Shown here: one piece after another, positions 3,970 through 57,735 of the stretch
How the letters are laid out: every line of letters begins with the position of its first letter
Numbering within the stretch: the stretch's first letter is position 1
Source of the DNA: a virus
Reading direction: 5' to 3' (one strand)
Virus genome (UHGV): UHGV-0101169
Length of the DNA stretch: 58,642 nt
Made by a program: the position numbers and the translations under genes
Notes under the pieces: generated by a model
Database searches by the model: none
Told to the model about the DNA's origin: nothing
The model's input: the letters and a program-made list of their open reading frames with translations, nothing else

Positions 3970-3998
3970 CATGTGGGACGGTTGCCCGTCCCGGTGGT

Positions 3999-4154: not shown

Positions 4155-4216
4155 CTTTTACCTCTCTTTCTGGCTCTCGCCTATTGCCATTCGGTTACTA
4201 CCTCTTGACAGTTATT

Positions 4217-4561: not shown

Positions 4562-4590
4562 TTGACATTATACTATTATTAGTATATAAT
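4562..4590 (+). promoter_or_regulatory. consensus sigma-A promoter (TTGACA-17-TATAAT) with the same 18-bp palindromic operator in its spacer
   Basis: TTGACAttatactattattagtaTATAAT. Operator at 4569-4586. Drives the plus-strand operon beginning at 4640. Confidence 0.65.
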
Positions 4591-5377: not shown

Positions 5378-5441
5378 GCCGAAACGCCCGTTAGGGCGTC
5401 CGGATCGGGTGCCGCCGGTTCGCTGATGATGGCAGGCAGAA

Positions 5442-12391: not shown

Positions 12392-13741
12392 TTACAAAGT
12401 AACAAAACGAATCGTAATTTCGTCCTTGTCAACCACTATATCTTCAACGCATTGCTTCAATATTTTGTTTTTTTCTTTCAATGTCAAGCTGTCCCAAACA
12501 TCTGACATATGCCTGATTTCTGCTATTTTTGTTGGATCACACCTCTTTTCTGTTTTTGCATCATCGAGTTTCTTTTTTAATTTCTTGATATTTTCTTCCT
12601 CTGCTTTTATCACATCAAGTAGATTTTCGCTAGGGTTATCTGCATATAAGCCGTACAACCGCCTAACTTTTGTATCAGATTTTTTTAACGATTCCACTAA
12701 AATTTCAGTGCTATCTTGATGGCTTTCAGTATACTCATTAATATTAATGGCAAAATTTTTAAAACATTCTTCCACTTCTGCTTCGATTTTATAAGCATCT
12801 ACTGGATGATTTTTGCAACAATCTGACTTTCGCATATATGCTTTTGAACTTTGATAATGTGAATAGCACACCAACTTCATTGTTTTTGCAGTCCATTTCT
12901 GGTATCTCATTCTTGCGCCGCAGTAACCACAATGGCACAAACCTGTCAGTAAATGTCCGCTACTCAAATAAGCATTGGTATGTCTTTTTTTCATTTCGTC
13001 TTGGACTTTCCAAAATACCTTTTCATCAATAATTGGTTCATGTCTGCCTTTATATACCTTGCCTTTATATTCAATTAAACCAATATTTGATTTTCGTTTT
13101 AAAATCCCCTTAACTATTGGTTCACCTTTAAATCCAAGAATCTTTGAAATGTTTTCGCAAGAAAATCCATTTAGATACAGATCATATACTTTTCGCACCA
13201 CAGACGCTTGTTGCTCATTAATGTGTAATATGCCATCATTGCGATCATAATAATATCCCCATGGGGTTCTGCCACCACCCATCCAATATCCTTTTTTTAC
13301 GCGTTCTAACATCCCGGCGGACATTCTCATTCGAATAACTTCACGTTCATACTGGTTCATGGCCGCATTCATTGTCAACATCATCCTGTCCATTGGATTT
13401 TCTGTCCGTAGTTCTTCAGTCATAGAAATAACCTTAACTCCATATCCAGGAAGAATTTTGTAAAACAAGTTCAGCGTATCAATAACATCTCGGCTCATGC
13501 GATCAAGCTTGTAGATGTACACTGTATCAATGATTCCGCTTTTTGCGTGGTTCAAAAGTTCTTGAATCTCTGGTCTGTCAAGTTTGCTTCCACTATACCC
13601 CCCATCTATGTACCATTTGTCAATAGTAATACCATGTTTTTCACAGTAATCCATTATTTTTTGTTTCTGCATATCCAAGCCGTACTTTTCAGTCTGTGTT
13701 TCTGTTGATACTCTCAAATATGCCACCTGCAATTTGCTCAT
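12392..13741 (-). CDS. large serine recombinase (integrase)
   Basis: N-terminal resolvase catalytic domain (YLRVSTETQ...), recombinase domain and Cys-rich zinc ribbon (CHCGYCGARM). 449 aa. Confidence 0.85.
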   Translation of the reverse strand: MSKLQVAYLRVSTETQTEKYGLDMQKQKIMDYCEKHGITIDKWYIDGGYSGSKLDRPEIQELLNHAKSGIIDTVYIYKLDRMSRDVIDTLNLFYKILPGYGVKVISMTEELRTENPMDRMMLTMNAAMNQYEREVIRMRMSAGMLERVKKGYWMGGGRTPWGYYYDRNDGILHINEQQASVVRKVYDLYLNGFSCENISKILGFKGEPIVKGILKRKSNIGLIEYKGKVYKGRHEPIIDEKVFWKVQDEMKKRHTNAYLSSGHLLTGLCHCGYCGARMRYQKWTAKTMKLVCYSHYQSSKAYMRKSDCCKNHPVDAYKIEAEVEECFKNFAININEYTESHQDSTEILVESLKKSDTKVRRLYGLYADNPSENLLDVIKAEEENIKKLKKKLDDAKTEKRCDPTKIAEIRHMSDVWDSLTLKEKNKILKQCVEDIVVDKDEITIRFVTL

Positions 13742-13798: not shown

Positions 13799-14146
13799 TC
13801 ACTTTGTCTTAGTCAATTTCTCAGCAAGTATTTTTTTTACACTTTCTATTTTAATTTCATTATTTTTCAGATCTTCCTTTGTAACACGCTGTCCATTAAC
13901 ATAAATTGTAGTCATGTTTTCAAACACCTCCAAAAAATCAATTATTTTTCTGAAAACAATTTTCTTCTTTTTGGTTATGCTGGAAAGCGACAAATTCAAC
14001 TTTTCTGCCATTTGAATATCACTAGCACCAGCACTTGCCATTTTTAATAATATGATTTCAGTTTGCGAAAAATTACAGTTATCCAATAAAAAATCAACTT
14101 CTGGCTTACTCAGTTTATTAAACCCTAACCGCATAAGCCCTCCCAT
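13799..14146 (-). CDS. sigma-70 region-4-like HTH regulator (candidate late-gene activator)
   Basis: LSKPEVDFLLDNCNFSQTEIILLKMASAGASDIQMAEKLNLSLSSITKKKK fits the sigma r4/LuxR HTH pattern. Confidence 0.45.
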   Translation of the reverse strand: MGGLMRLGFNKLSKPEVDFLLDNCNFSQTEIILLKMASAGASDIQMAEKLNLSLSSITKKKKIVFRKIIDFLEVFENMTTIYVNGQRVTKEDLKNNEIKIESVKKILAEKLTKTK

Positions 14147-14862: not shown

Positions 14863-15516
14863 TTATCTCAAGCCAAGTGCTTTTAATTTCTCCATGGCAT
14901 TATCAGGAATGCCATGCAACCTTACAGAAGCTTTATTTTTCTGTTTTTCCTCTTCTCTCGTATTTTCTATCAATTTGGTATCCGAAGCCTCTAACCTTCC
15001 TGCCAATGCGTTCTGGTTAAGATTTTCAACTAATTCCCTAATTTTTTCAGGAAGTTTATTAAGTTCCTTTCTTCTATCCATAACCACACGATATGACCTC
15101 ATAAAATTGCTACTGGCAACACTCTCATTAAAAGTTTCGTCCATAGCCCATATTTTGAGTTGTTCTGGCCTGCCAACTGCCTTTTGAACCGATGCGGGAA
15201 GTTTTTGAAATTCTTCACCACTGTTGTATGTGCTATTTCTCAATGCCTTGCTTACTAAAGTCCAGGCTTCCAGCTCATTCATTTCTTGTGGAGAAGTTAA
15301 CAGCATGATTTTTTCCATAATCTGTCCTGGAGAAGGCGCAAAGCCGCTGGAATTTGTACGCATGTATATAGCAAACGCCCGTTGAACTGTATCCCATTCG
15401 CAATCACTTAATGCCATTCTCCAGGCATTAACTGCTGCTGTCTTATCTGGAGGATTAAAGTTCGGATAAGTTGCCTGTATCATTGCAAGCAAGTTCTGAG
15501 TTTCTTCTCTTGTCAT
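14863..15516 (-). CDS. G39P-like helicase loader/inhibitor family protein
   Basis: N-terminus TREETQNLLAMIQATYPNFNPPDKTAAVNAWRMAL resembles SPP1 G39P. TAATG overlap with the upstream replisome organizer. Confidence 0.45.
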   Translation of the reverse strand: MTREETQNLLAMIQATYPNFNPPDKTAAVNAWRMALSDCEWDTVQRAFAIYMRTNSSGFAPSPGQIMEKIMLLTSPQEMNELEAWTLVSKALRNSTYNSGEEFQKLPASVQKAVGRPEQLKIWAMDETFNESVASSNFMRSYRVVMDRRKELNKLPEKIRELVENLNQNALAGRLEASDTKLIENTREEEKQKNKASVRLHGIPDNAMEKLKALGLR

Positions 15517-16151
15517 TATGACTGCCTCCATTCATCTATAAGATTTCTATCTGTATGGGTTTCAGGCTGCTTCCGTGTTCTCTCCCATGTCCTAACAGCA
15601 GCTTTCCAGTCTTTCATCTTGTTTTTGCCTATCATCCAGCCTTTAGAACTGTAAAAATTTACAAAAGATTGAGCATCAATTCCATTTTGCCTTTGCTCAC
15701 AGTAAGCCTGGACCTCATCCGCTGTTGGTGGAATAAAAATCTGTCTTTTTGGTTCAGGCTTTTTCTCTGCGTTAGGTGGTTCATCTGGTGGTTCGTTAGG
15801 TGGTTCACTCAGATTTTCGGTAACCTGAAATTTATTGTAATTTACTACGTTTATCAGCGTTCCTCTGTTGGTTCGCTCCGTGGTCACCATTTGTTCATCC
15901 TCCAACAGTTTAAGGAATCGTTTAACTTTATTTCTGGACCATGACCAACGGGCACTTAGCTTCTCTATGCTGAACATATAGGAGCCTTTTGGAACTATGG
16001 TAGTCTTGCCGTCTATCAACATTTTTACATCCTTATGAGAAGCTGAAAGCAATATATCTATCCAAGCTGATCTTCTATCAAACGCCTCCCTACTGTTCCA
16101 AATAGAACAGTCAAATATTTGTCTATGTAGCTTTATCCAGCCTTTTTCCAT
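15516..16151 (-). CDS. phage replisome organizer (DnaD-like N-terminal domain)
   Basis: MEKGWIKLHRQIFDCSIWNS...SRNKVKRFLKLLEDEQMV, plus the C-terminal motif FVNFYSSKGWMIGKNKMKDWKAAVRTW. Confidence 0.6.
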   Translation of the reverse strand: MEKGWIKLHRQIFDCSIWNSREAFDRRSAWIDILLSASHKDVKMLIDGKTTIVPKGSYMFSIEKLSARWSWSRNKVKRFLKLLEDEQMVTTERTNRGTLINVVNYNKFQVTENLSEPPNEPPDEPPNAEKKPEPKRQIFIPPTADEVQAYCEQRQNGIDAQSFVNFYSSKGWMIGKNKMKDWKAAVRTWERTRKQPETHTDRNLIDEWRQS

Positions 16152-26783: not shown

Positions 26784-26993
26784 CTATCTTGTTACCAACC
26801 ACAGTGCCAATGCTGCTCCAACCATCATCAGCCCTGCTACTACAATCACTGTATCCGCAACCTTCCAAAAGATTTCTTTCCAGTGTTTTTTTTCAGTCTT
26901 AATTGCCACGTAGCTTACACCAAGCGGGCAATCATGATTTTTCATCTTTGCCATTTTTCCAATACCTTTCTTGTGGTATAATCTCCTTATCAT
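26784..26993 (-). CDS. small membrane protein (one TM)
   Basis: Hydrophobic C-terminal helix. Divergent from the 27015 gene. Confidence 0.35.
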   Translation of the reverse strand: MIRRLYHKKGIGKMAKMKNHDCPLGVSYVAIKTEKKHWKEIFWKVADTVIVVAGLMMVGAALALWLVTR

Positions 26994-27014
26994 TTAACAA
27001 GGAGGTGAATTAAA
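26974..27014 (+). promoter_or_regulatory. conserved promoter/operator/SD module copy 1 (TGgTATAAT-CTCCTT-N10-AAGGAGGTGA)
   Basis: The 34-nt string ggtataatctccttatcatttaacaaggaggtga is identical at 28945-28978. Confidence 0.6.
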
Positions 27015-28115: not shown

Positions 28116-28931
28116 CTACGCACAATACTTAACTTCATACTCCTGGACGATTTTGGAGTAAATCTCACGAAGTTTCTTGTCATGTTCAATTACATCAATC
28201 TTTTTGATGTCAATCTGTTTCTTAGTTCCGCCAGCGTTTTCAATTCTCTGCTTCATGTTTCTGACACGTTTACCCAAATCGGCGCCAGCCCTACGTTCAA
28301 GTTCCTTATGCATTTCAGCCTGTAACTCTGCATAACCAATATTTGCTTTGAGAGCAATCTTTACTATTTTTGCCCTGATCTCCACACGCCAGTTATCCAT
28401 AATTGGTTTAACAGCTTCTTTGATATTCTCCGTAGTCTCAACAGCTTTCCGCGCTGTTTCATTCGCAAGAGCTATCTTCCGGTCGCGTTCCTTATCTTCC
28501 AGCTCTTTATTTGCAATGCTCTGCGCTAATTGCAAAATGAGTTGTGTCTGTGGAGATAAGTCCTCTGTGGCAAGTTTCCTTGCTTTAAAGTAGCCATTTA
28601 CAAGCTGTCTCTGAACTGTCCACGCCAAATCGTCCGTAAACGACTTGACTAACATCAAATAACCTTGTTCTGTCAGAAGAACCACTTCATTGTTTGGATT
28701 TCCGCCTTTTGAGTTAGGTACGAAATTCGTACAGAACTCTGAATACGGTATTATAAAGTAATCTTCATCTTTTATAAAATGTTCTCTATTTACATTGAAA
28801 TTTCTTTTTGCCGTTCCCTCAGGTCTTTCATGGACCATATCAATATCTTTCAATGTAATCACTCTTTGATTTCGATATTCTTTTACTGAAATATCTGAAT
28901 TTCTGATACGTATTAGCTCATTCATTTTCAT
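28116..28931 (-). CDS. ORF6N-domain antirepressor-like protein
   Basis: VKEYRNQRVITLKDIDMVHERPEGTAKRNFNVNREHFIKDEDYFII fits ORF6N. Confidence 0.6.
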   Translation of the reverse strand: MKMNELIRIRNSDISVKEYRNQRVITLKDIDMVHERPEGTAKRNFNVNREHFIKDEDYFIIPYSEFCTNFVPNSKGGNPNNEVVLLTEQGYLMLVKSFTDDLAWTVQRQLVNGYFKARKLATEDLSPQTQLILQLAQSIANKELEDKERDRKIALANETARKAVETTENIKEAVKPIMDNWRVEIRAKIVKIALKANIGYAELQAEMHKELERRAGADLGKRVRNMKQRIENAGGTKKQIDIKKIDVIEHDKKLREIYSKIVQEYEVKYCA

Positions 28932-28944
28932 TCACCCTCTTTCA

Positions 28945-28984
28945 TGGTATAATCTCCTTATCATTTAACAAGGAGGTGACAAAG
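28945..28984 (+). promoter_or_regulatory. conserved promoter/operator/SD module copy 2
   Basis: Identical 34-mer to copy 1. Extended -10 TGgTATAAT at 28945-28953. Confidence 0.6.
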
Positions 28985-29471: not shown

Positions 29472-29834
29472 ATGAAAGATCGTATAAAAGAAGTAAGAAA
29501 ATCTACCGGAATGACTCAAGTTGAGTTTGGTGAAAAACTTGGAGTAAAAGGAAACACTGTTACAAATTATGAAACTGGTCAAAGAACCCCTACAGACGCA
29601 GTTATACGTTCTATTTGCAGAGAATTTCATGTAAACGAAGAATGGCTCAGATATGGAACCGGAGAAATGTTTCCACCGAAAACCAAAGACGAATTGATTT
29701 CTGATATGATAGGAGAAATTCAAAGGTCTGGTGAAGACAATTTTAAGCACAGGCTTGTATCGGCGCTTTCAAAGCTAAGTAAGTCTGATTGGGAAGCATT
29801 AGAAAGATTAATTGATTCTATTGCAAAAAAGTAA
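29472..29834 (+). CDS. XRE-family HTH transcriptional regulator (CI/Cro-like)
   Basis: TGMTQVEFGEKLGVKGNTVTNYETGQRTP is a canonical HTH_3. Confidence 0.75.
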   Translation: MKDRIKEVRKSTGMTQVEFGEKLGVKGNTVTNYETGQRTPTDAVIRSICREFHVNEEWLRYGTGEMFPPKTKDELISDMIGEIQRSGEDNFKHRLVSALSKLSKSDWEALERLIDSIAKK

Positions 29835-35371: not shown

Positions 35372-35387
35372 TTTTGTGGTCCGCCTG

Positions 35388-35469
35388 GTAGTTCAAGTGG
35401 TGGTTCAACAGGTAGTCCGTTAGGTGGTTCAATAGGTAGTTCATCTGGTGGTTCGTTGGTTGGTTCAAT
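35388..35469. repeat. iteron cluster R' (four ~22-bp units, inverted relative to cluster R at 3798-3940)
   Basis: Reverse-complement units tgaaccaaccaacgaaccacc, tgaaccaccagatgaactacc, tgaaccacctaacggactacc and tgaaccaccacttgaactacc. Confidence 0.6.
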
Positions 35470-35650: not shown

Positions 35651-36277
35651 TTAAAGCTCATAATCTGGATAAACAGCTTCCCAAACATCTTTATGATAAG
35701 CATTAATCGACCCATAATTAGCGTCGAAGATCTTCTTGACTTCGTACCCCATACGTTCCCCAGCCTCTTTTAGCCTTCTCCATTTGAATGTTTTCCAAGA
35801 AACATTATTCAGTGCTGCTACTCGCTTGATAGAGTACCAATCTTTGCTTGTATCAAGCTGTGCCTGTAGCTCTGCTTCCCGATCCAGGCTTTCCAAAAGC
35901 TGTGCGATAGCGTCCCGGTAAGACATCGGCATATTCATCTTATCGTCTTTCTTCTGGAAGTAATTGTCAACTAGGCGGTCATACACTTCCCACGCCTGAT
36001 CCGTGTTCAGGGACTTAGCGTGAAGAAAAGCACCTTTTTCTGTCCAAAGGTAAATTGTTTTTGCATTTTTCAGACCGTCGTGATTTTCCAGACGGTTCAC
36101 AAATAGGGTCTTTTCTTCATTTTCAAGTTTTATAAAATGTTTTCCTTCTATAAAACGATCAATATTGTGGTTAAAATTGTACGAGATTGTTTTTCTGTCC
36201 GTTCCATACGCTTCCGCAATCTGCTGTGTGGTTAAAACTCTCTGGCATCTGTACTCTGTTACTTTTAATCCTTCCAT
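35651..36277 (-). CDS. ORF6N-domain antirepressor-like protein
   Basis: TEYRCQRVLTTQQIAEAYGTDRKTISYNFNHNIDRFIEGKHF. SD GAAGGAGA. Confidence 0.6.
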   Translation of the reverse strand: MEGLKVTEYRCQRVLTTQQIAEAYGTDRKTISYNFNHNIDRFIEGKHFIKLENEEKTLFVNRLENHDGLKNAKTIYLWTEKGAFLHAKSLNTDQAWEVYDRLVDNYFQKKDDKMNMPMSYRDAIAQLLESLDREAELQAQLDTSKDWYSIKRVAALNNVSWKTFKWRRLKEAGERMGYEVKKIFDANYGSINAYHKDVWEAVYPDYEL

Positions 36278-36307
36278 CCAATTATCTCCTTCTGTATTTA
36301 AAGCAAC

Positions 36308-36397
36308 AAAAAACGCCCACCAGACATAGATTTTCTACATCTAGTGAGCGTGATTCTTAAACTGTTTTTGCCGTCCTTACTCAGTTCGTCCTATCCT
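36308..36397 (-). promoter_or_regulatory. conserved leader element copy B ending in an intrinsic terminator (CGCUCAC-loop-GUGGGCG-U6)
   Basis: Shares AGGATAGG, AGTAAGGACGGCAAAAA, CACGCTCAC and GTGGGCGTTTTTT with copy A. Compensatory U-G pair in the stem. Confidence 0.55.
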
Positions 36398-36465
36398 TTA
36401 AGCCTTGTTTTTCCCGCAACGGCTATTGGGCAAAGCTGATGGATTCGGCTAAATTTTACCCTTTT

Positions 36466-36494
36466 ATTATACCTGTTTTAGGCTGGAATATCAA
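36466..36494 (-). promoter_or_regulatory. consensus promoter TTGATA-17-TATAAT driving leader B
   Basis: Minus-sense cTTGATAttccagcctaaaacaggTATAAT. Confidence 0.55.
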
Positions 36495-37156: not shown

Positions 37157-37351
37157 TTAGTTGTTCTTATTTTTTGCCTTTTGGTATTCATCTTCAATAC
37201 CTCTTCGGACAATTTCGGATCTGCTTACATTAAACTTTTCCGCTGAATAATCAAGTTTTTTTAATGTTTCATCGTCAAGTCTAGTTCTAAGCATAAAATC
37301 CTTTGTATTATCCTTAATTTTCTGCCCTGTTTTAGGCGACACTTTTTTCAT
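37157..37351 (-). CDS. ribbon-helix-helix DNA-binding protein
   Basis: FMLRTRLDDETLKKLDYSAEKFNVSRSEIVRRGIE. Confidence 0.5.
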   Translation of the reverse strand: MKKVSPKTGQKIKDNTKDFMLRTRLDDETLKKLDYSAEKFNVSRSEIVRRGIEDEYQKAKNKNN

Positions 37352-37835: not shown

Positions 37836-38483
37836 TTATGCTGTCAAGTATGCAATATCTGCAAATCTCTCCAATCTGTCTTTGCAGTCCTTGTAAATAT
37901 CTTTATATGGCATTCCCATTGACATGTCAATTCTAATTGTCTGTAAAATAATGCTTTCAACTAACGTCAGGTTATTCAGGTCGGTAACCGATACAGTGTC
38001 CCGATTTCCACCAATGATTGATTTTGCCAACTTTGTATATGTGAGATACAGTTTATCAGAATGCGTACTGCCCTGTTCTTTCGCATAATCAACAAGCATC
38101 TTAATCACATCAGTTTCTTTCAGTCGGTTTTCTTTGTTGGCAAGTCTGGTGTCGTTCCACTGCTTTGACTGTTTATCCAGAAGAAATTTGCGCATGGCAT
38201 AGAACTGACGCACAAGTTCCTTTTTGAATTTGACTACTGTTTTGGAATTTCTCAAAAGGGTAATGACAAAAGTTGCCTGCTCTTCATTCAGATAAATAAC
38301 TTCCATGGGTCTTCCACCTGAACTTTCCTCATTTAAAATGAGCAAAGTACCGAACTCTTCGATATCGCTTTGGTATTTCTTGATTACCTCTCTTACTGCA
38401 TGATGCTGATTTCCTGTCCCTTCTGCAATCACCTTACTATTTGTAAATACATCGTTTCCTTTAAGTTCCACTAATTCATACAT
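37836..38483 (-). CDS. rha: phage regulatory protein Rha
   Basis: N-terminus LVELKGNDVFTNSKVIAEGTGNQHHAVREVIKKY is a typical Phage_pRha domain. Confidence 0.65.
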   Translation of the reverse strand: MYELVELKGNDVFTNSKVIAEGTGNQHHAVREVIKKYQSDIEEFGTLLILNEESSGGRPMEVIYLNEEQATFVITLLRNSKTVVKFKKELVRQFYAMRKFLLDKQSKQWNDTRLANKENRLKETDVIKMLVDYAKEQGSTHSDKLYLTYTKLAKSIIGGNRDTVSVTDLNNLTLVESIILQTIRIDMSMGMPYKDIYKDCKDRLERFADIAYLTA

Positions 38484-38576: not shown

Positions 38577-41500
38577 TTAAGTGAAGCTAAATCCATTTCT
38601 GCTGATTCGGCTGTTAATAGCACTGACAAGTTCACGCCCGTCAAGACTAATTGACGTATCCTTGTCAGCAGTTTCCCTGGTATTTTCTGCAATCTGGGAC
38701 AAATATGGAGCTAAGACATCTACAACAGCTTCTCTTACTCCTGCAGTAATGCCAGCTACAATCTGCTCATTATTTGCTACTGCGGTTTTGCCATTGGAGA
38801 ACTGACCAACCATCTCATTATGGTTTGCAAAGAACAGACCATCTTCTGGAAACCCACCTACAGAGTATTTAGGAATGTCAACATGAGCTATTGCTCTGAA
38901 AGATACATGTGAAATGGTATCTTCTTGCATTTCCTTTGCTGCCTCATTGTAATCGCTGATCAGGTCATTCATAGACTCTGCAATTCTGGACAATCCAGTA
39001 TTGAACAGGTCAATCATGCCATTGACTAAATCTCCAACTTCTTTCACAATGCCTTTAAATCCAGAATAGATACCGTCCTTCATATTGGTTCCAAATGGTT
39101 CCCACTTTTCCTTTGTGAACCAGGTAGACACATTGTTGGTAAACCAATTGTTGATATTAGTGTTCCACTGGGTTTCAAATTCAGCCCATTTATCCAGAAG
39201 TGCAGTTTTGAAGTGATCGCCCTGTTCCTTCCACTTTTCAACGGTAAACCATGTTTTTACGTTAGTATTCCACCACGTATTAGTTTTTGTTTTCCACTGA
39301 GATACAAATTCGTCCCACTTGGCAATAAGACCTGTTTTCATTCCGTCCGTTGTAGTTTTCCATTTTTCGGTGGTAAACCACGGAGAAACATTTGCACTAA
39401 AAAATGTTGGCATTGCTGTTCCAGACCACCATACAGCAGCTTGGTTCCATGCATTCATTAACGATGTCTCAAGATTGCCAAAAATAGGATCCAGTGCCGT
39501 AGTAGTAAAACTTGACGCAAGACCAGATACAGCAGTAGTACCAATCGTGCTAAACTGCGACTCACTAAGGGTATCAGAAATAGTATTGTATACGTCAGTA
39601 GCAAATGTGCTAATTGTATCAATACCGTTACTGCTCTCAAATGGCTTGATTAAACCATCCAGCATACCTTGCCCAATCTCTTTCCATTTGGATTCAGAGA
39701 ATATGTCATAAACATCATTTATAGTACCGGAAATACCATTTTGCAGTCCTTCAATGAGATAAACACCATTCTCATCCATGACAGTAGACGGGGAATGGAT
39801 ACCAAGGATGTCCTTAAATTTATCAATGACACTTTGAGCTACCGTACCAACACTCTCTTTGATATTATTCCAACCGTCTTTGATACCATTAATCAAGCCT
39901 TCCATGAGGTACCCACCCATGTCAGCCATAACCGTAGACGGAGAATGGATACCAAACGCCGCCTTAAATCCGTCAATAAACGGAGTGAAAATATTATCAA
40001 TTATCCATTGACCTACAGATTTTAAAGCATCTACAATACCATTGTATAAGCCCTGAATAATATTTCCACCGGCAGCCTGAATGTAAGTATCAAAATATGC
40101 TATAGTCGCATTAAATCCAGCAACCAATTGATTCCATACAGCTTGTCCAACACCTGCGGCCAAGGCAAGTGATGCACCAATAGCAGCGCCTAAATATGTA
40201 TACGCACTGCTTACAAGACCAGCATAATCAATAGTGGTTACAATCTTAATTAATTCGTTTACTATACTAATTCCAATTTGCTGCCAGTTAACCGAAGTAA
40301 TTGCATCGGCTAAAAATCCATATAAGCCCTCTACAATCAGCACTGCGGAGCTCACTAATCTCTCTGCCAGGCCTTCCCAGTCAATACCTACAAGAAAATC
40401 CATGACTCCTTCGCCAAAAGCTCCCCAGTCTGTTTCGTCAAGAAGCGCAATCAAAGTATCAAGCAAACCTGTGACAACAGAACTAAGACTAGATGCGGCT
40501 CCAGACCAGCTAAAAGTTGATGCAAATGTATTTAAACTAAGCGCAAGACTACTTCCGAAATTAGTCCAGTCAAATGTTGTCGCAGCATTTTCTAATACCG
40601 TAAATACAGCATTTAATCCATTTGCAAGCATTTGTCCAATTTCATCCCATTGAACAGAGTTGACAATCCCATTAAGACCATCACCGATAAATTTTCCAAT
40701 GGAATCCCAGTGTGTAACATCCAAAAGAGTATTTGCGAAGTCTACAGCTGTATTAATTCCCTGACCAATGGTTGTACCGATTGAAGTTGCCAGCCCCTCA
40801 GTTTCAACAAATCCATTAATAAAGGTTCCAATACTGGATGCAATCTTTCTGGCAGACTCCTGAATGCCGTCCCAAGGGATAGCGTCAAGGCCGTTCTTAA
40901 GCCAAGTACCAACGGCAGAACCAAGTTCTGTAAAGTCTGCTGCTTCCCACATGGATTTGATTTTATCAGACCACTCCTTGTATTTGCTGTCAATCTCATC
41001 AGTCTCAAACATATCAGCGGCGCTTGCACCGCTACCGCCAGATCCGCCACTCTTGCTTTGGTCAACAATATTCAGCTCATCAATTCCAAGTGTATGGGTC
41101 TTAAGGTCATCAGCAGCCTTCCCAGCCTTTCCAAGACTCTTAGCATAGTCTTGTGTCTGCTTCTTGGCTTTAATCCATGTACCATGTCCTGTAAGCGCAG
41201 AAAACAGCTGATTAACAGCATTTGCCGCATTAATACACATCTGAATGATAGTATTTAACGCCGGAGCCAGTGCGTTAAGAAGTGGAGATGCTGCCGCTGC
41301 TACAGAGTTTTTCAGCTGATTTGTGGAATTCATCAGCAATGACATGCTGGCATTGGTCTCACTGCTGTACTTGACCAAATTTTGCATACCGTCAACAAAA
41401 GCTTTTCGCAACTTATTGATTAATGCAAATAAGGTCCTCACTCCTACTGCATATCTAAGCATGGTTCCTAGATTTTTTAGCAATGAATTATGAGAGCCTT

Positions 41501-43340
41501 TACTTGCCCCTGTAAGTCCAGAGAACGCTTTAATAAGCTTGCTTTTAAGTGCAGAAGCTAATGAAAGTATTGACTTTTTAGCTGCCTTTAATGGTGCAGT
41601 TAAACCAGTTAATATGGCTTTCTTTGCTACACCCGCTGCTGCTCTAGCCGCTGTGCCAATAGATGGCATTTTTCTGACAGCATCAGAAACAGCACCTTTA
41701 GCTGAACTTGCAAGCCCTTTAAAGATATTACCATTTGCCAAGTCTCTAAAAGACTGAGATATCATGTCTTTCATGTTTTGCAACTGGCCAGATAAACTGT
41801 TTATGCTTTGTTTTGCCGCTTCTGTATTTTTCTCAATGTCCTGTGATGCATCTGCATTATTCTCACCGCTTGACGTTTTGTCTTGGAACATCGCTGGATC
41901 ATTCAACGTCATTCCGGCAGACTTTCCATATTCGCTTACTGCCTGTGCCCAATCTCTAATTTGCGCAGCTGACTCGCCGAACGTTTGAGCCATAGCATCT
42001 GCATTGTATTGCATATCAGAAGCAGCTACTTTTACAGACTCTTGGGCTTCAGAAGCGCTTTTTTCAATGTTATCTCCAAAATATGACGATATATCATCCT
42101 TATCAAACATATCATCAAGTTTTTCTGATGATGCACCATTAATTGTGCCAGTAAACACATTAGGATTAGGCCCTGTGCTTGCTGCCTGTTTCTCAGTCAC
42201 TTTTGCAGCTTCCTCAGCCGCTAAACGTGCAGATTCACGCATGTTATCCAGCTGTGCAGTAAGAGATTCAATCTGATTCTCATACTTTACAACGCTTGCA
42301 ACAGTATTCTCATAGGTCTTGCCATCTGTATTTCCAGATGCTTCTAGTTCTTGCTGTTTCAGCTTTGCATTTTCCAGACTGTTAGTTAAAGAAGTGATTT
42401 TATTTTCAATCTGCTTCTCATTTCCAGACATGGTAAAATCTTTTCCCAAGTCTGCATACTGCTCTCTGATTTCTTCAGCAGTGCGTGATATATCTTTTGA
42501 AAAACCTGACATCTGAGCAACCATTTTTTCTCGCATTTCTTTCATGCCATCAAACAAGTCACTCCACATGTCATCTTCATTGAAATTTGCGCCTTCTGAA
42601 CCAGCAGATACCAGTCTAGTAGCATCTAATCTGGCAGCTTTGACAGCTGCAATAATTTCTCTAAACTGCTGCGTCTGGTCCTCTGTACCAGAAAATAAAT
42701 CCTTAAATTTATCAGACATTTCCTGATAAATAGAATCTATTTCAATTCCAGACCCATCGGTACTAAACGATCCCATTGCAGTAGCGCGTAAACTTTTCCA
42801 ATCATCTCCAAGTTCGGCAATAACGTTTTTAGGAATATCAATTTTTCCTAGACCTTTGAAATGGTTAAAAAAGTTTTCATATTCGCCAGTGGTAGATTGC
42901 AAAACTTGTGCATTCTTTTTGACCGTATCACCTAATTTATCAAAAGTTTTCAAAAGTTCTGGATTATCCATTCCAGATGCAATCTCACCAATATTCATTC
43001 TGGCAAGAGATTGTGTCATTTCTTGAATATTTGCCCGAACTTCTTTATCTTTGATTTTATATCCCCTGATGATACTGTCTGCAAAAGTTTTACCTAACTT
43101 ATTGCCTGCCGTAACCGCACTTTTAACATTTCCAAGAGATTTTACACTTTTATCAAGCCCTCCACTTTTAGAAAGATCAGATATCTTTTTTGAAAAATCT
43201 GATAATCCGGAATCTTTTGTAAGTGCCGAAAGTCCTTCCGCCACGAGACCAAGTTTCTTTATCAATCCATCAAGGCTCTTATTTGCTTCATTCGCAGTAG
43301 TTTTGACCGCTATTTCAAGAGAATCTATTTCTGCTCCCAT
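38577..43340 (-). CDS. tail tape measure protein
   Basis: ~1590 aa, alpha-helical, Gly/Ala-rich segments. Follows the chaperone genes. Start set at MGAEIDS after SD AAAAGAGGTG. Confidence 0.85.
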   Translation of the reverse strand: MGAEIDSLEIAVKTTANEANKSLDGLIKKLGLVAEGLSALTKDSGLSDFSKKISDLSKSGGLDKSVKSLGNVKSAVTAGNKLGKTFADSIIRGYKIKDKEVRANIQEMTQSLARMNIGEIASGMDNPELLKTFDKLGDTVKKNAQVLQSTTGEYENFFNHFKGLGKIDIPKNVIAELGDDWKSLRATAMGSFSTDGSGIEIDSIYQEMSDKFKDLFSGTEDQTQQFREIIAAVKAARLDATRLVSAGSEGANFNEDDMWSDLFDGMKEMREKMVAQMSGFSKDISRTAEEIREQYADLGKDFTMSGNEKQIENKITSLTNSLENAKLKQQELEASGNTDGKTYENTVASVVKYENQIESLTAQLDNMRESARLAAEEAAKVTEKQAASTGPNPNVFTGTINGASSEKLDDMFDKDDISSYFGDNIEKSASEAQESVKVAASDMQYNADAMAQTFGESAAQIRDWAQAVSEYGKSAGMTLNDPAMFQDKTSSGENNADASQDIEKNTEAAKQSINSLSGQLQNMKDMISQSFRDLANGNIFKGLASSAKGAVSDAVRKMPSIGTAARAAAGVAKKAILTGLTAPLKAAKKSILSLASALKSKLIKAFSGLTGASKGSHNSLLKNLGTMLRYAVGVRTLFALINKLRKAFVDGMQNLVKYSSETNASMSLLMNSTNQLKNSVAAAASPLLNALAPALNTIIQMCINAANAVNQLFSALTGHGTWIKAKKQTQDYAKSLGKAGKAADDLKTHTLGIDELNIVDQSKSGGSGGSGASAADMFETDEIDSKYKEWSDKIKSMWEAADFTELGSAVGTWLKNGLDAIPWDGIQESARKIASSIGTFINGFVETEGLATSIGTTIGQGINTAVDFANTLLDVTHWDSIGKFIGDGLNGIVNSVQWDEIGQMLANGLNAVFTVLENAATTFDWTNFGSSLALSLNTFASTFSWSGAASSLSSVVTGLLDTLIALLDETDWGAFGEGVMDFLVGIDWEGLAERLVSSAVLIVEGLYGFLADAITSVNWQQIGISIVNELIKIVTTIDYAGLVSSAYTYLGAAIGASLALAAGVGQAVWNQLVAGFNATIAYFDTYIQAAGGNIIQGLYNGIVDALKSVGQWIIDNIFTPFIDGFKAAFGIHSPSTVMADMGGYLMEGLINGIKDGWNNIKESVGTVAQSVIDKFKDILGIHSPSTVMDENGVYLIEGLQNGISGTINDVYDIFSESKWKEIGQGMLDGLIKPFESSNGIDTISTFATDVYNTISDTLSESQFSTIGTTAVSGLASSFTTTALDPIFGNLETSLMNAWNQAAVWWSGTAMPTFFSANVSPWFTTEKWKTTTDGMKTGLIAKWDEFVSQWKTKTNTWWNTNVKTWFTVEKWKEQGDHFKTALLDKWAEFETQWNTNINNWFTNNVSTWFTKEKWEPFGTNMKDGIYSGFKGIVKEVGDLVNGMIDLFNTGLSRIAESMNDLISDYNEAAKEMQEDTISHVSFRAIAHVDIPKYSVGGFPEDGLFFANHNEMVGQFSNGKTAVANNEQIVAGITAGVREAVVDVLAPYLSQIAENTRETADKDTSISLDGRELVSAINSRISRNGFSFT

Positions 43341-43403
43341 TTGACACCTCTTTTCTGAAAACAAAAAAAGGGAGATAAGCAATTACACCTATCTCCCTAA
43401 AAC

Positions 43404-52129: not shown

Positions 52130-53547
52130 GTCTCTGGTTCTTTTTTATTCGTATCAATCAAATTTTCTTTTTCTATCGAATCTATAGTCTTATATAATAC
52201 ATCAAAGTATGGCTGAGATTGCAAAAATACCTTTTCTGCATCTCCCCACAATCCGCATGTTGCCACAGCAATTCTGGGATTAACTCCTGCTTGCAACATT
52301 TGAGTAAGGGCTTGTGTCTTAGTGTATAAATTATCCAATGGGCTATGACTTATTTGAACGTCAAAATCACGTATAGATAATTTTAAATCATTCCCGGCAA
52401 CTCTAAGAACATTTAGTGCAATCATTGCCAATCTTTTTTCTGATGATCTTACGATTGGATCTTTCATCTTGGCTCTTGTCTTAGAAAAATCCCACCCAGC
52501 TCTTAAGCTTACAGCTCCTTGTGTATCACCACCGGAGTTTTGCGATTCTCTGTTTGGTATAGCAAGTATGGCTTGCAAATTATCAAGCAAATCATCTTTC
52601 GCAACCTGGCACTGTGTCTGGTTAAGCTCCTGTGTCATCACATCAACATCAGACTTATTGTCCTTATTAATGGACGTTACTACCAGTGCCCTGCTCATCT
52701 TCATTTTTTTGAACTGTTCTTCATCGACTTCGCAGTTGACAAATTTAATCCATGACTGTACAAATTGTTCAATGCCGTCCATGCGGTTTGACTGCATGTT
52801 GTTGATTGCATCCAGCATGGAAATAACCAGTTCAATATCTGAAATTCTTTCATGGTTATTTGGATACTCCACAATTGGAATACCGCCATAAGTATGCAGC
52901 TTTGATTCTACCAGATCGCTATTAACCATTTTGAAGGACATGGTATCAGAAAATGCCAGCTTGTAATACCGACCATCCTCATCTTTCAGTTCCTGAACAA
53001 CCAGAATCGGTTCTTCCGTATTCCGATTGTAAATCATGAAAGTATTCATAGGAGTAGGGGCTGTAATTCGGAATGGAACATCACCTTGCTTTGGCTGTAC
53101 AGCCTTGAATGACGTTCCCGTAGCTGACTGCCACTCACCAGCCTTAATGTCCTTTTCCTGCTTGTTGGCATCTACCATGTAATCGTTCAGCTCATCAACA
53201 GCTTTGTTAATGGCTTCATCATCTTTCCGGCTGATAAACTGCACAGGTTCTCCATATGTCTGGCCCACTTTAAACTGGACAATCTCATAGGCATGATTCT
53301 CAACGATTTTGTTTGTTATGTCCTCATTGGTAATCTTCGTTCTGTATAAAGTTGGCTGATCACCTTTATAGTAGCGCCACAGATACCTGATTGCAATTTT
53401 ATTCCCATAGAAAACACCAATGCAATCACCAATTACCTTCACAACATTCTGTGGTGTGATTTTATCGACATCCGTATATGCTATTTTTCGTCCATAAACT
53501 CCATGAACCAGGTCTTGGAATTTCATTGTGTTTCTTGTAAAATTCAT
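52126..53547 (-). CDS. portal protein
   Basis: ~474 aa, downstream of the terminase. SD AGGTGAAAACATG. Confidence 0.7.
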   Translation of the reverse strand: MNFTRNTMKFQDLVHGVYGRKIAYTDVDKITPQNVVKVIGDCIGVFYGNKIAIRYLWRYYKGDQPTLYRTKITNEDITNKIVENHAYEIVQFKVGQTYGEPVQFISRKDDEAINKAVDELNDYMVDANKQEKDIKAGEWQSATGTSFKAVQPKQGDVPFRITAPTPMNTFMIYNRNTEEPILVVQELKDEDGRYYKLAFSDTMSFKMVNSDLVESKLHTYGGIPIVEYPNNHERISDIELVISMLDAINNMQSNRMDGIEQFVQSWIKFVNCEVDEEQFKKMKMSRALVVTSINKDNKSDVDVMTQELNQTQCQVAKDDLLDNLQAILAIPNRESQNSGGDTQGAVSLRAGWDFSKTRAKMKDPIVRSSEKRLAMIALNVLRVAGNDLKLSIRDFDVQISHSPLDNLYTKTQALTQMLQAGVNPRIAVATCGLWGDAEKVFLQSQPYFDVLYKTIDSIEKENLIDTNKKEPET

Positions 53548-53555
53548 GTTTTCAC

Positions 53556-53753
53556 CTACATATAAGTAAGGCCTGAAGAACATTTTCTTTCAGGTCTCTC
53601 TTTCAGTTCAGTATCATCATTATCGGGATAATAGATAACACGCCTATAGCATTTTTTACAAATACAAATAACTGGTGTTGATGTACGCCCGTCCCATCTG
53701 CCTACTCTTATACCGCATCTAGGACAGTACACAGTTTTAGGTTCATGCTTCAT
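53556..53753 (-). CDS. small zinc-ribbon protein (65 aa)
   Basis: CPRCG...CICKKC. Confidence 0.4.
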   Translation of the reverse strand: MKHEPKTVYCPRCGIRVGRWDGRTSTPVICICKKCYRRVIYYPDNDDTELKERPERKCSSGLTYM

Positions 53754-53893: not shown

Positions 53894-54337
53894 TCATTTT
53901 GACTCATTGTAGGACACTTTGCCACCTAAATACTTATTCCCGTACATATTTTCAAAAACAGCCAATGCATTGTAATAAATCCTTTTGACTTGTTTAAGCG
54001 AAATATCACCTCTAAGTCGAATGGTTTTTAAATCCTTATCCAAAATAAACTTCTGACACAGAACATCATACATATTCGTATCTGGAATGCTTTCAATTTC
54101 TTGAACAATCTCATATCGCTTATCAATAATATTGTCAACTTCACGTTCCATATCTACAATTTTGGAAACATATGAACTAATTTTGTCAGGATTCTTCGAG
54201 GTCTGTATTCTATCACCATTACTCTGAACAGCCGATGTGCTGTAGATAATAGACCTTAGATTTTCAACTTCCTTTAATTTATTTTCAATCATTCGATTAT
54301 ATCTTACTACTAAAGATAAATACTCTCTCGTTTCCAT
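53894..54337 (-). CDS. hypothetical protein (147 aa)
   Basis: ORF only. Abuts the terminase stop. Confidence 0.45.
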   Translation of the reverse strand: METREYLSLVVRYNRMIENKLKEVENLRSIIYSTSAVQSNGDRIQTSKNPDKISSYVSKIVDMEREVDNIIDKRYEIVQEIESIPDTNMYDVLCQKFILDKDLKTIRLRGDISLKQVKRIYYNALAVFENMYGNKYLGGKVSYNESK

Positions 54338-57177
54338 TATCCAAACCTCCTAAACGGATTTATTACTGCTTCAACCTTTGCTGTCCTGTTCCCTTGCGTA
54401 ATCCTAAGCGCAAAGTTTGAGAATACATCTGGAACATCGTCTAATTGCTTCTTTCCAGATACAGAATATTGCTTAAGCAACGTCATCATCACACCATATG
54501 GTTCTTTCGGTGTATACTTTGACGCATCTTTGAATATCACATGTTGTAATATCCAGTTTGAGCACTGGAAGATACGTGCTTCTTTGTTAGTTTCAGTAGG
54601 GACATCAGTGATATTACAAATCCATCCCTTTGCTTCTACTCGCTTATTGACTTCCATTGCTACACGGTCACCACCAGCATTTCTCTCAAATTCGCACTCA
54701 ATAACCTCGTTATTGACAAGCATATTTGCCGCATTTTCATACTGCATTTCATAATCTGCTGTATTGTCGCACACGGCATCCACACAATAATAATCTTCAC
54801 CAAATTTTTGGAATACTGGCATAACAAAATAATCAGTTCCCTTACCCTTGGTATCGCACTGAGCTGTGACAATCTCAGGTACACCATGTGGCAGATTCAA
54901 ATATCGCCTGATTTTATCTTCTGGGAATAACAGGCCCTCACGTTCAATAGGCTCCTGCTTATACAGACATTTGTATGAAATATCATCCATCAATAATTGT
55001 TGGTCTGCAAAGAACTCCTCGTCAAAGCCTGAGAATTCATAATCAAAATTGCTCTTTCCAGTAACCGGATCAACATCAGGAACAGCAATTACCTTTACCC
55101 TCGGATTACCTTCATACATTTTTTGGATACGCCCTATGACATCCTGGACACTCCATCTGGTTGCAATGTGTATTTCCTTACAATTCTTACCATCAGTATC
55201 TTTGATTTTTCTTTGGCGTGCATCTACGGAATACTTACTCCACAACTTTTCAAGTATAGCCGGATTCAATGCTTCCTCGATACCGCCAATCATATCATCA
55301 ACCAGCAGAAACTTAGAAGCACGGACTTTACCCGCATTTTTGCTTCCTACTGATGTGCACTGCACAGATGGGAACGGCTTATATTTTCCTACGTTGAACT
55401 GTTCTGTCTTTGCATTTGTACTTGTCACATACAAATCAGGGAAAATCTCATTCCATGCATATTCGTCTGAATTAGTAACTATATCATATATACCGTCATA
55501 GTACATTCTGGTAATATCACCGCTATGGGAATAAAACAAATTGAAGTCTTTCGGATACCAGCCAATTACTGCAGCATTGAAGAATTTTTCAATGGTAGTA
55601 TTGTGAGTAATAATGTAATCATCTGTAATGTACAAATGGCAAGGATTATCAATCATAATACACTGGCACTCTTCTTCTCCTACATACTCAATATTTTTTA
55701 TATAACGTTTCCAAAGCTTGCGTTTTGGATTATATATTTTAGCTTTTCTCTCTAACCAAAATGGATTATCATGATTTGCACTAAACAAAATTGTAATCCT
55801 ATAGTTATCAAGGCACGAAACACTATTGCCGTCCTTGTCTCTGTACCCAGATTTCCGTTTTGTTAAGCTCGCATATCCTCCCAAAGAACGTACTAATTCT
55901 GTTACATTTTCCGCAAGTTTTTGAGAGGCTGTTGAATATTCTATTCCCTTGTATTCTGCGTATCCGTCTGTATCTAACAATCCACGTAATAGCCACAATC
56001 TTTGTTCATGACTTGAATATAGATATTCTTCTGGTATAAATTTTGTAGCAGATTTTGTACCAAGAAGGCCTAATCTATTTAGTTCCTCTTTTAATAGGTT
56101 GGGTTTTTTTGCAGCATCTTTAGAGCGCAAATAATAATCTTTATCACTTCCACGTTTTAGGACAAACTCATATCCGCCAATGAGTGAATTGATTTTTTCA
56201 ACTATTTCTTTATCTTTTTTTGTAAAGCAAATTGTTTTTGTACTTAATCCACCATCTCCCAATAAGCATCCAAGAAGATACGGGTGTATATAAAACTTTT
56301 TTTCTTCAAAGGCTTTAATTTCGGGAACATAGTCTATAGAATAGTTTTTCCTTCCGTCTTTTTCAATAATAAAATCTTTAAGCATATCTTCCGTTTTTAT
56401 TATTCTTGTCCTATGATTTCCCGTCCTTGTTTCAAATTGTCTATCACACCGATTTTGTACTTCCCATAAGTGATTATCTGAAACTTCTGTAAAGCCTCCG
56501 TCATTCATTGTAATTCTGTATATTCGGCGTTTCCCTTGTGGATATACTCCAATAACAGACGCTTTTTCTCCGTCTCCGGCCACAACCTTTGTTCCAACCT
56601 TTACATCACGCATTTCAATGAATCCGCTTGGTGTTAGGACTTTAGACGACATCTTTCCAGCTTTCCCGGCACCAGGAATAAGGCTAATGCACAAAATGTC
56701 GTACTTGTCATCAATCATGCCCTGTAAAGCATCCACCAAACCGATTTTAAGCAGCTGTTTGCGCCTAGGCATATAAAACCGCTCTTTCGGTTCTCTTTTG
56801 TGCTCTATATACCTGAAAAAACTGTCAATCACTTTATGTTGAGCTTCTAAAAGCAAAACCGAATAAAAACAGTCTATCAGCTCCAATATGGTTTTATTGG
56901 TTGTCTTATACTCAAATGCATATTTTTCCAATTCCCATATAGCACCACCTGTCTGTTCTAAACAATAACGCTCCGTCAGCTCCTTTGAGCGCTTTGCAAG
57001 TTGTAATCCATAATGAATATCATTTTCACCATTAATAGCCACTGCGCAAGCCTTTGCGTATGCCTGAACAACCCGCCAATCGACACCGTTAGCCTGTATG
57101 TAATTTTCATATTCCCTGATTGTTTGCTTCAGATTTTCGGAAGCCAAAAGAAAAGCACCTCCACTTTCAAAAAGCAA
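54337..57177 (-). CDS. terL: terminase large subunit interrupted by an intein; TTG start (an alternative TTG 30 nt downstream has SD GGAGGTG)
   Basis: P-loop region LIPGAGK..., Walker B KFLLVDDM, C-terminal nuclease-like region. 946 aa because of a ~350-aa intein. Confidence 0.8.
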   Translation of the reverse strand: MLFESGGAFLLASENLKQTIREYENYIQANGVDWRVVQAYAKACAVAINGENDIHYGLQLAKRSKELTERYCLEQTGGAIWELEKYAFEYKTTNKTILELIDCFYSVLLLEAQHKVIDSFFRYIEHKREPKERFYMPRRKQLLKIGLVDALQGMIDDKYDILCISLIPGAGKAGKMSSKVLTPSGFIEMRDVKVGTKVVAGDGEKASVIGVYPQGKRRIYRITMNDGGFTEVSDNHLWEVQNRCDRQFETRTGNHRTRIIKTEDMLKDFIIEKDGRKNYSIDYVPEIKAFEEKKFYIHPYLLGCLLGDGGLSTKTICFTKKDKEIVEKINSLIGGYEFVLKRGSDKDYYLRSKDAAKKPNLLKEELNRLGLLGTKSATKFIPEEYLYSSHEQRLWLLRGLLDTDGYAEYKGIEYSTASQKLAENVTELVRSLGGYASLTKRKSGYRDKDGNSVSCLDNYRITILFSANHDNPFWLERKAKIYNPKRKLWKRYIKNIEYVGEEECQCIMIDNPCHLYITDDYIITHNTTIEKFFNAAVIGWYPKDFNLFYSHSGDITRMYYDGIYDIVTNSDEYAWNEIFPDLYVTSTNAKTEQFNVGKYKPFPSVQCTSVGSKNAGKVRASKFLLVDDMIGGIEEALNPAILEKLWSKYSVDARQRKIKDTDGKNCKEIHIATRWSVQDVIGRIQKMYEGNPRVKVIAVPDVDPVTGKSNFDYEFSGFDEEFFADQQLLMDDISYKCLYKQEPIEREGLLFPEDKIRRYLNLPHGVPEIVTAQCDTKGKGTDYFVMPVFQKFGEDYYCVDAVCDNTADYEMQYENAANMLVNNEVIECEFERNAGGDRVAMEVNKRVEAKGWICNITDVPTETNKEARIFQCSNWILQHVIFKDASKYTPKEPYGVMMTLLKQYSVSGKKQLDDVPDVFSNFALRITQGNRTAKVEAVINPFRRFG
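55600..56649 (-). mobile_element. intein with LAGLIDADG homing endonuclease inserted in the terminase P-loop
   Basis: Hint block A (SSKVLTPSGF...VGTKVVAGDG) aligns to canonical inteins. Block B SDNHLW. Two LAGLIDADG motifs (LLGCLLGDGGL; LWLLRGLLDTDGYA). C-terminal ITHN followed by Thr. Confidence 0.75.
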
Positions 57178-57627: not shown

Positions 57628-57735
57628 GATTTTCCTCCATATTAATTGCCCGGCTGCCGTCGCGTCTACAGCATCTCTTTTGACCATATTGGTGCGTGGG
57701 TGCAACGAACTTTCCTACCTCGGGCAAACATGATT

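Follow-up and report, generated by a model that had tools for sequence, protein, structure and literature searches.

Genomic context of the two leader copies

The window analyzed here, a stretch of 58,642 nucleotides of the virus genome UHGV-0101169, carries on its minus strand an antirepressor-like gene that is preceded by a promoter, a structured leader and a terminator (copy B). The promoter (36466-36494) consists of a -35 box TTGATA (36494-36489), a 17-nt spacer and a -10 box TATAAT (36471-36466); with a match of 11/12 it is one of only two sites scoring at least 11/12 in the 18 kb scanned, and transcription is predicted to start near 36459. The conserved RNA (~150 nt, 36455-36307), which scores 144 bits against the covariance model of the family described below, ends in an intrinsic terminator (36308-36351) composed of an 18-pair hairpin (36351-36313, -25.5 kcal/mol) and a TTTTTT (U6) tract. 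A Shine-Dalgarno sequence, GAAGGAGA (36292-36285), follows upstream of the ATG at 36277, which opens an ORF6N antirepressor-like gene (35651-36292 with its Shine-Dalgarno sequence). Its product, of 208 aa, is assigned to ORF6N by Pfam (E 8.3e-22) and has matches in several anti-repressor families of PHROG. An earlier, sequence-only reading of this DNA had proposed a TTGATA-17-TATAAT promoter, a ~180-nt untranslated leader with a terminator, and a Shine-Dalgarno sequence leading to the start codon of an antirepressor gene at 36277, and each of these parts was recovered on the minus strand at the coordinates proposed, as was the antirepressor identity of the downstream gene.

The copy B cassette is located between the tape-measure gene (38577-43382) and genes that are conserved after the tape-measure gene in related contigs, and the island that contains it most likely lies inside the tail module, in agreement with its earlier placement. 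The island also carries a Rha gene (37836-38483), a zinc-ribbon ORF, a ribbon-helix-helix (RHH) gene and several more terminator-like hairpins. Elsewhere, the early region encodes a second ORF6N-domain protein of 271 aa (28116-28931, minus strand), and its gene is adjoined by one of two 44-nt repeats (26965-27008 and 28936-28979, 91% identical) that contain a TATAAT-like box and a Shine-Dalgarno sequence. Repeats with a 12-nt period (GGTGGTTCA and variants) occur at 35373-35467, 15773-15884 and ~3790-3950 and appear to encode proline-rich 'EPP' repeats on the minus strand; one tract falls in a small ORF after the antirepressor gene (an ORF that is intact in contigs L010/L011), and another within the coordinates of a DnaD-like gene (15516-16151).

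Local alignment of the copy B leader against the window revealed one other site, on the minus strand at 3350-3189 (copy A, E 4.6e-9), and the covariance model likewise finds exactly two copies, at 144 and 116 bits, the next match scoring 17 bits. The shared blocks and terminator that had been noted in the last ~90 nt of the leader are indeed common to the two copies, while the similarity is not confined to that part and covers the whole ~150-nt RNA, from ~10 nt past the -10 box to the U tract (blastn E 4.6e-9). Copy A has the promoter TTGACA-17-TATGCT (3355-3383, minus strand) and an RNA that spans 3197-3346 on the same strand with its terminator included (116 bits), the terminator itself running from 3244 to 3203 and being followed by a U tract. 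The GTG start codon (3173) of a TerS-like gene (2556-3173, minus strand, 205 aa), the first gene of the packaging/late operon, begins 24 nt past the RNA 3' end as bounded by the covariance-model match. Since TerL (54337-57177), portal and capsid genes follow the copy A operon after wrap-around of the window, the window is circularly permuted, with copy A at the head of the packaging/late operon.

The portal protein shows 47.5% identity to proteins of uncultivated human faecal phages, 39.8% to that of Dulem virus 39 and 32.6% to that of Clostridium phage Maintenon of [Clostridium] innocuum, and on this basis the phage is grouped with them; to judge from these portal relatives, its hosts appear to belong to the gut Firmicutes. 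A serine integrase (12392-13741) and a CI-like helix-turn-helix (HTH) protein (29472-29834) are encoded in the window, and the phage is therefore temperate.

Additional features were observed in the vicinity of copy A and in its operon. Just upstream lies a mini-cassette (3943-4245, minus strand) with an 11/12 promoter (4245-4217), a 12-bp terminator (3970-3943) and an apparent ORF of ~50 codons that was read by eye and is absent from the ORF-tool calls; the sequence then turns GC-rich, passes into a low-complexity run made up of pyrimidines only (~3540-3600) and continues as a block of very high AT content (3420-3540). On the plus strand, at 5377-5441, a type II hammerhead ribozyme (RF02276) scores 41.5 bits against a gathering score of 37; it belongs to a unit whose 12/12 consensus promoter (4562-4590) diverges from an HTH_26 gene (4250-4477). 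Two tRNA genes (69-141 and 807-879, minus strand) lie between the terS-proximal genes and the TerL gene, the same relative position as that of two tRNAs (Trp, Gln) in phage Maintenon, and the second of them is abutted by a Cys-rich 63-aa ORF without a family match (870-1061, minus strand), which recurs at 52-75% identity in the late operon of 15 loci of the terS class (class 1, below), with several RNA types, ~2-3.6 kb downstream of the leader. A skipping-rope RNA (RF02924, 52.7 bits, 57645-57728, minus strand) lies in the late operon downstream of copy A, just upstream of the TerL gene. The TerL ORF (54337-57177, minus strand) comprises 946 aa as compared with 585 aa in contigs L040 and L024, and its N-terminal half also matches primase, DnaC-like and endonuclease PHROGs, pointing to a domain that was inserted or fused, perhaps an intein or a homing element.

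Conserved anatomy and covariation of the leader RNA

From its 5' end, the RNA presents a conserved AAUUUA-GCCGA sequence, a helix P0 (CC/GG) and a helix P1 (4-7 bp), with a small GA/A internal loop between the two, followed by P2 (4-7 bp), a 3' bulge of 4-5 nt that is A-rich in most types, P2a (CCC/GGG) and a ~12-nt loop with GCCGU(G). The 3' strand of P1 is followed by AGG, ~6 variable nucleotides, GAGCAAGG, ACGGC and AAA, and a pseudoknot between the loop GCCGU and the tail ACGGC was chosen independently by RNAalifold. A variable, purine-rich linker of 10-17 nt in the types inspected leads to the terminator, whose base, ACACGCUCAC.../...GUGGGCGUUUUU, is almost invariant across types while its top varies freely.

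In copy B, covariance-model match, pair counts and helix parsing place the structured domain at 36370-36455 on the minus strand. The 5' AAUUUAG is followed by P0 (CC at 36448-36447, paired with GG), P1 (AUCC 36444-36441 with GGAU 36396-36393), P2 (36437-36431 with 36407-36401), P2a (CCC 36430-36428 with GGG 36415-36413) and a 12-nt loop in which GCCGU (36423-36419) would form the pseudoknot with ACGGC (36374-36370); the conserved single strands are AGG and GAGUAAGG (36382-36375). A purine- and A-rich linker (36352-36369), of a length and sequence that differ between types in the alignments, joins the pseudoknot to the terminator, the base of which, ACGCUCAC.../...GUGGGCGU, is near-invariant, in contrast to the variable top of the stem.

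The covariance-model alignment has 88.6% of its cells paired, compared with 36-46% when the partners are slid, and contains 18 pairs with changes on both sides; its covariation score of 0.317 compares with 0.03-0.07, and none of 500 shuffles scored as high. P0 and P1 were misaligned by the model in some types, and the columns were extracted by anchors and recounted. In the anchored recount P0, P1 and the pseudoknot are 100% paired in 13 of 13 types, with three compensatory pairs, and the slid-partner controls over both counts gave 24-48%. P1 occurs as AUCC/GGAU, GUUGC/GCAAU, AUCAC/GUGAU, GUUCUGU/ACAGAAU, AUCCGC/GCGGAU and, in copy A, GUCUUG/CAGGAU. Because pairing and covariation exceed those of the slid and shuffled controls, we conclude that the structured domain is under selection. 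About 25 of its ~85 nucleotides are both invariant and unpaired.

Two parts of the structure vary little. The pseudoknot is never broken and shows one change, from G-C to G-U, and is thus consistent with the data rather than proven. The pairs of the terminator base are 100% kept in the covariance-model alignment and almost never vary, the few variants preserving pairing; by eye, type K (L244) has a G-C pair where other types have A-U. The terminator base therefore seems constrained in sequence beyond what pairing demands, which points to recognition by something. Three further structures or signals were considered and set aside. An outer helix pairing a 5' GCCG with CGGC gave way to the loop-tail pseudoknot, as the 5' G changes to A in the lineages L002 and L176 and the first positions vary (ACCG, UUCG), the loop GCCGU being kept. 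By eye, an outer helix between the 5' segment and the linker is seen with one compensatory change in types A/A2 and is absent in types B, C, D, G and I. A leader peptide would start from an AUG inside the terminator arm that is seen, again by eye, in some types only.

An uncatalogued family of gut-phage leader RNAs

The family was collected by exact-pattern scans of public collections and then by searches with the covariance model R1; the scans depend on exact words, and divergent members would escape them. The covariance model gave 102 matches of at least 72 bits, corresponding to 70 distinct sequences and ~15 sequence types in gut viral and metagenome contigs. The sources are UViGs of IMG/VR and metagenome contigs, several with a human-gut label, together with a single contig from a rabbit-gut MAG (L080). 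The latter is the one true match from an exact-pattern scan of 185,579 species genomes, and there the RNA stands before the TerS-like gene known from the phage contigs; throughout the collections scanned, the element was seen only in phage or viral contexts. Two copies per genome are also found in other phages (L047 with L174, and L010 with L176). Two copies are defective (L222, 12264-12400, minus strand, and L255, 154-304, plus strand): in one, the domain is intact and the terminator has been swapped for unrelated sequence after ACGGCAAAA, and the other, of D type, is without the GGAUAGG segment.

A search of the whole window against Rfam 15 at the gathering threshold returned only two tRNAs, the skipping-rope RNA and Hammerhead II, none of them at the leaders. 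Both leaders, searched at E<=10, gave only chance matches of 9-18 bits, and an Rfam 15 search of six further loci gave nothing at the element, so that a known RNA family, as represented by a score at the Rfam 15 gathering threshold, is ruled out. Relatives were found neither by blastn in GenBank phages nor by the covariance model in the nearest portal relatives, and full-text literature searches yielded no description of the element. A 2023 catalogue reports 10,006 candidate viral RNAs (PMC10690425), and the element may be among the unnamed candidates there. The 102 matches in other contigs, together with the compensatory base changes, place the resemblance far beyond chance; the copy A/B element is a real member of an uncatalogued gut-phage leader RNA family.

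Promoters, terminators and downstream genes across types

A near-consensus promoter (8.5-11.5/12) is present in 17 of 17 types, with a spacer of 17 nt in 15 types and of 18 nt in two. The -10 box ends 13-21 nt ahead of the CCGA motif, indicating that the RNA domain begins near the 5' end of the transcript; the region following the -10 box is AT-rich and in most types contains (T/G)AAAAT-like hexamers, which might or might not act as the -10-like hexamer of a sigma-dependent, promoter-proximal pause element such as lambda-type late leaders have. Terminator energies range from -24 to -29 kcal/mol. Where a gene follows directly, its start codon comes just 21-43 nt after the terminator (23-35 nt in the terS class), which leaves no room for a promoter, and the gene must therefore be transcribed through the terminator. 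With terS reached in this way, TerL, portal and the rest of the operon must be as well. The late operon is thus preceded by a promoter that is strong as judged from its consensus match, by a terminator less than 200 nt further on, and by no other promoter.

The gene contexts fall into two classes. Class 1, which comprises copy A and at least eight other types, is followed after 23-35 nt by a TerS-like family of 203-223 aa; Pfam GP3_package (P22 gp3 small terminase) matches five of eight of its members (best E 2.6e-5), and the homologous genes of L040 and L024 are followed by TerL at a distance of ~3 kb, with a portal gene after TerL in L040. Class 2, which comprises copy B and the C types, is found in the island after the tape-measure gene and is followed by ORF6N, Rha, Bro-like or other HTH proteins. 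The element is thus not specific to antirepressors, given that the L010/L011 cassette has no antirepressor gene, its first downstream ORF being short, proline-rich and 125 nt away. No promoter above 9/12 lies between the copy B cassette and the downstream genes, and the interior of the late operon contains several further terminator-like hairpins. Taken together with the position of copy B cassettes within the late operon, this suggests terminator-resistant late transcription, and the internal hairpins would fit processive antitermination. In contig L004, an int-alpA RNA (RF02996, 48.3 bits, 1943-2013, minus strand) directly follows the terminator of a C2-type cassette and places two structured RNAs in tandem before the cargo gene; L007, L008, L013 and L015 share the same downstream sequence.

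Dulem virus 39 and Clostridium phage Maintenon lack the element RNA, yet both have a promoter (12/12 and 10/12, respectively) and an intrinsic terminator directly before terS. From these arrangements the control point appears to be conserved and older than the element RNA, with the leader as an exchangeable specificity module. Antitermination specificities are exchanged among lambdoid phages, and we liken the exchange of leaders at a kept control point to such swaps. Two other leaders deserve mention. In L003 (7218-7376, minus strand), a second Rha-like gene of the same island is preceded by a different promoter-RNA-terminator cassette, which combines the promoter TTGACA-17-TATAAT with a 5' AAUUUAACUGAAAC and with a terminator base of its own, CCCUCAGC.../...GUUGGGGG; the model gives it only 24.7 bits, and it may represent a sister leader class. 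The other precedes the terS-like gene of Dulem virus 39 (L301 8432-8655, record 53431-53654); besides the 12/12 promoter it has a terminator of 16 bp, it folds stably (z -4.6), and it echoes the motif in a different order (GGAGCAAAGAC, CCCCGGA...UCCGGGG, GCAAGGAC, AGCCGU) and may be a distant or rearranged relative.

Search for an antiterminator helix and for a regulatory factor

Complementarity between the upstream RNA and the 5' arm of the terminator was at the level of shuffled sequences in 17 types (z -1.7 to +1.5), and read-through is therefore not achieved via a built-in antiterminator helix. This discards a classical attenuator with alternative pairing; an antiterminator formed by the loop GUGAG or by CGCCC with the terminator arms is possible in some types only, the global test being at chance. 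The conditional terminator that had been proposed for copy B is still the natural reading, in view of the conservation and covariation of the shared promoter-leader-terminator unit and of the absence of space for a promoter beyond the terminator. The position of copy A at the head of the terS/late operon fits control that is linked to the late phase.

As regards the regulator, two candidates had been named. The supposed sigma-like protein (13799-14146) has only sub-threshold GerE/LuxR-type HTH matches, is unrelated to the sigma-like gene of phage Maintenon and has no link to the element; Rha (37836-38483) likewise has no link to it and is another moron in the same island. Pfam, PHROG and NCBIfam scans of the ~65 window proteins detected no Q-, N- or NusG-like antiterminator families, many of the small ORFs being unannotated, and in the partial loci available no small protein consistently co-occurs with the RNA. 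Among potential co-occurring regulators, the RHH protein (37157-37351) belongs to a widespread multi-copy family, the HTH_26 protein (4250-4477) is inconsistently placed, and the Cys-rich 63-aa ORF (870-1061) is situated downstream in the late operon of many class-1 loci and is without a family match; all three were rejected. A search for operator words shared near the two promoters or in the immunity region returned only noise.

A proposed antitermination checkpoint and its alternatives

We put at roughly 45% the probability that the element is a factor-dependent antitermination checkpoint, similar to lambda PR'-tR', for lytic or late-phase genes. The near-consensus sigma-A-type promoter would fire, and the first ~85 nt of the transcript would fold into the pseudoknotted three-helix domain. 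By default, RNA polymerase would then stop at the strong terminator ~30 nt further on and release the ~150-nt RNA, until, presumably late in infection, a trans-acting factor recognized the folded domain and/or the invariant terminator base and brought about read-through, at copy A into terS and the late operon, at copy B into the antirepressor gene and the conserved, presumed tail genes that lie beyond it. Such a factor would most likely be a phage-encoded protein acting on RNA or polymerase. This proposal builds on the anatomy, conservation, covariation and gene contexts that we observe and on the absence of alternative pairing. Counted against it are the missing antiterminator protein and the lack of a consistent partner, as well as the elaboration of the ~85-nt domain, which exceeds that of boxB or RAT sites and makes it as much like a ligand aptamer or an RNA polymerase-binding RNA. 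In a wider and distinctly tentative formulation, the domain and the invariant-base terminator could constitute a new antitermination switch in gut Firmicutes phages, either a polymerase-acting RNA or the receptor for an antiterminator protein or signal molecule, that would switch the late operon and the antirepressor together without an alternative-helix platform.

The order of promoter, aptamer-like domain, terminator and Shine-Dalgarno sequence is typical of transcriptional riboswitches, and the domain, whose structure is supported by covariation, has a pseudoknot and strongly conserved unpaired nucleotides enclosed by covarying helices. It would accordingly be conceivable that the domain binds a small molecule or second messenger reporting the state of the host or of the infection and thereby alters adjacent termination, an explanation that we regard as unlikely. 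The domain and the terminator do not overlap and are separated by the variable linker (10-17 nt in the types inspected). GAGC in GAGCAAGG can pair with GCUC of the terminator 5' arm, and RNAfold predicts this in 7 of 14 truncated transcripts; however, only 4 bp would compete with a terminator of -24 to -29 kcal/mol, and complementarity to the terminator arm is at chance. Moreover, the cargo (TerS, ORF6N/Rha/Bro-like proteins, HTH morons) has no common metabolic theme, the one true match among the 185,579 species genomes of the exact-pattern scan (L080) is upstream of a TerS-like gene, and no Rfam riboswitch is similar. A passive attenuator or insulator, in which a strong promoter and a leaky terminator would set a fixed low expression and the fold would affect only RNA stability, is in our opinion highly improbable: promoter-plus-terminator units are common in phage morons and no regulator was found, but stability would need neither ~25 invariant unpaired nucleotides nor a pseudoknot and an invariant terminator base over ~15 diverged types, and late structural genes need high, timed expression.

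The presence of two copies per genome, each just after the strong promoter of a different operon, the conserved unpaired residues of a structured RNA, the lack of an antiterminator helix and the additional terminator-like hairpins within the late operon are all compatible with a put-like RNA that would bind polymerase in cis, without a protein, and enable it to pass this terminator as well as later ones, control being exerted at the promoter, for example by a repressor. If always overridden, however, a terminator with an invariant base right after the element would be pointless, no operator-like repeat is common to the two promoters, and the three helices and pseudoknot differ from HK022 put, which has two stem-loops; we consider this explanation very unlikely. 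Hardly more probable is that the terminated ~150-nt RNA is itself the main product, a phage small RNA in lysogens on the pattern of lambda 6S/StxS or of the P1 c4 and P4 CI immunity RNAs, with read-through being incidental. Its own consensus promoter and terminator, a terminator base that is near-invariant across types, as expected of a hairpin in a functional RNA, and the movement of the cassette between different downstream genes would be in line with such a role, for which StxS, a PR'-tR' leader acting as an sRNA, provides a precedent (PMC7547250). On the other hand, the terS/late operon has no other promoter in reach (gaps of 23-35 nt), so that read-through is essential, and the conserved single strand GAGCAAGGACGGCAAA has no complementary target on the minus strand, which encodes most phage genes, even when three mismatches are allowed. 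A role as a small RNA is compatible with the antitermination checkpoint and not exclusive of it.

For the switching of late genes in temperate gut Firmicutes phages, the element marks the control point exactly, at the head of the terS operon and ahead of antirepressor cassettes. It is a compact portable unit of ~190 bp, by which the beginning of the late operon can be annotated in a clade of uncultivated phages; it may also explain how cassettes inserted after the tape-measure gene avoid cutting off the downstream late genes. As it encodes no antiterminator helix, the answer is likely to prove a new antiterminator, an RNA that acts on polymerase or a riboswitch of an unusual sort.

Comparison with known systems

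The closest parallel to the proposed checkpoint is provided by lambda PR'-tR' and Q, where a strong sigma-70/sigma-A-type promoter is likewise located directly before the late operon with a terminator within ~150-200 nt, a short default RNA is produced (6S, or StxS in Stx phages), the late genes are reached only by read-through, and related phages keep the layout and swap the leader. The element phage differs in that the ~65 proteins scanned include no Q-like one, in that its leader is covarying and pseudoknotted and its terminator base invariant, neither of which is needed by Q systems, in that a second copy, close behind the tape-measure gene, would control an antirepressor cassette within the late operon, and in its host group, apparently gut Firmicutes. 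The boxA-boxB nut sites used by lambda N are similar as RNA recognition elements at the start of two operons whose specificity could be phage-encoded; in contrast, nut sites are short hairpins, and no N-like arginine-rich protein was found among the scanned proteins of the element phage.

HK022 putL/putR and the Bacillus EAR element are cis-acting RNAs that render polymerase resistant to termination. What the element has in common with such systems is a pair of related structured RNAs in one genome, both close behind a promoter, the lack of alternative pairing and the terminator-like hairpins further along the operon. Their fold and sequence are different, and the element is followed immediately by a dedicated, sequence-conserved terminator. 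EAR is listed in Rfam, and the Rfam search gave no EAR match at the element. The element resembles transcriptional riboswitches in how its parts are ordered, in its covarying helices and their conserved junctions, and in having a pseudoknot, whereas it has no overlap or encoded competition between aptamer and terminator, conserves the terminator sequence, is found only in phages and precedes genes unrelated to metabolism.

The placement of an RNA element directly before the antirepressor gene of a temperate phage is also reminiscent of P22 sar, P1/P7 c4 and P4 CI, and the small RHH gene (37157-37351) near copy B recalls arc/mnt. Those RNAs are antisense RNAs with defined complementary targets; for the element none was found, and it heads the terS operon as well. 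An antisense immunity RNA of the c4/CI/sar type was rejected on the basis that there is no minus-strand target for GAGCAAGGACGGCAAA and no Rfam C4 match. A promoter-proximal conditional terminator before phage late genes is of a classical kind, and the RNA family that occupies this position here is absent from Rfam, GenBank phages and the literature searched. What sets the element apart is that, with no antiterminator helix, it joins a covarying pseudoknotted domain to an invariant terminator base.
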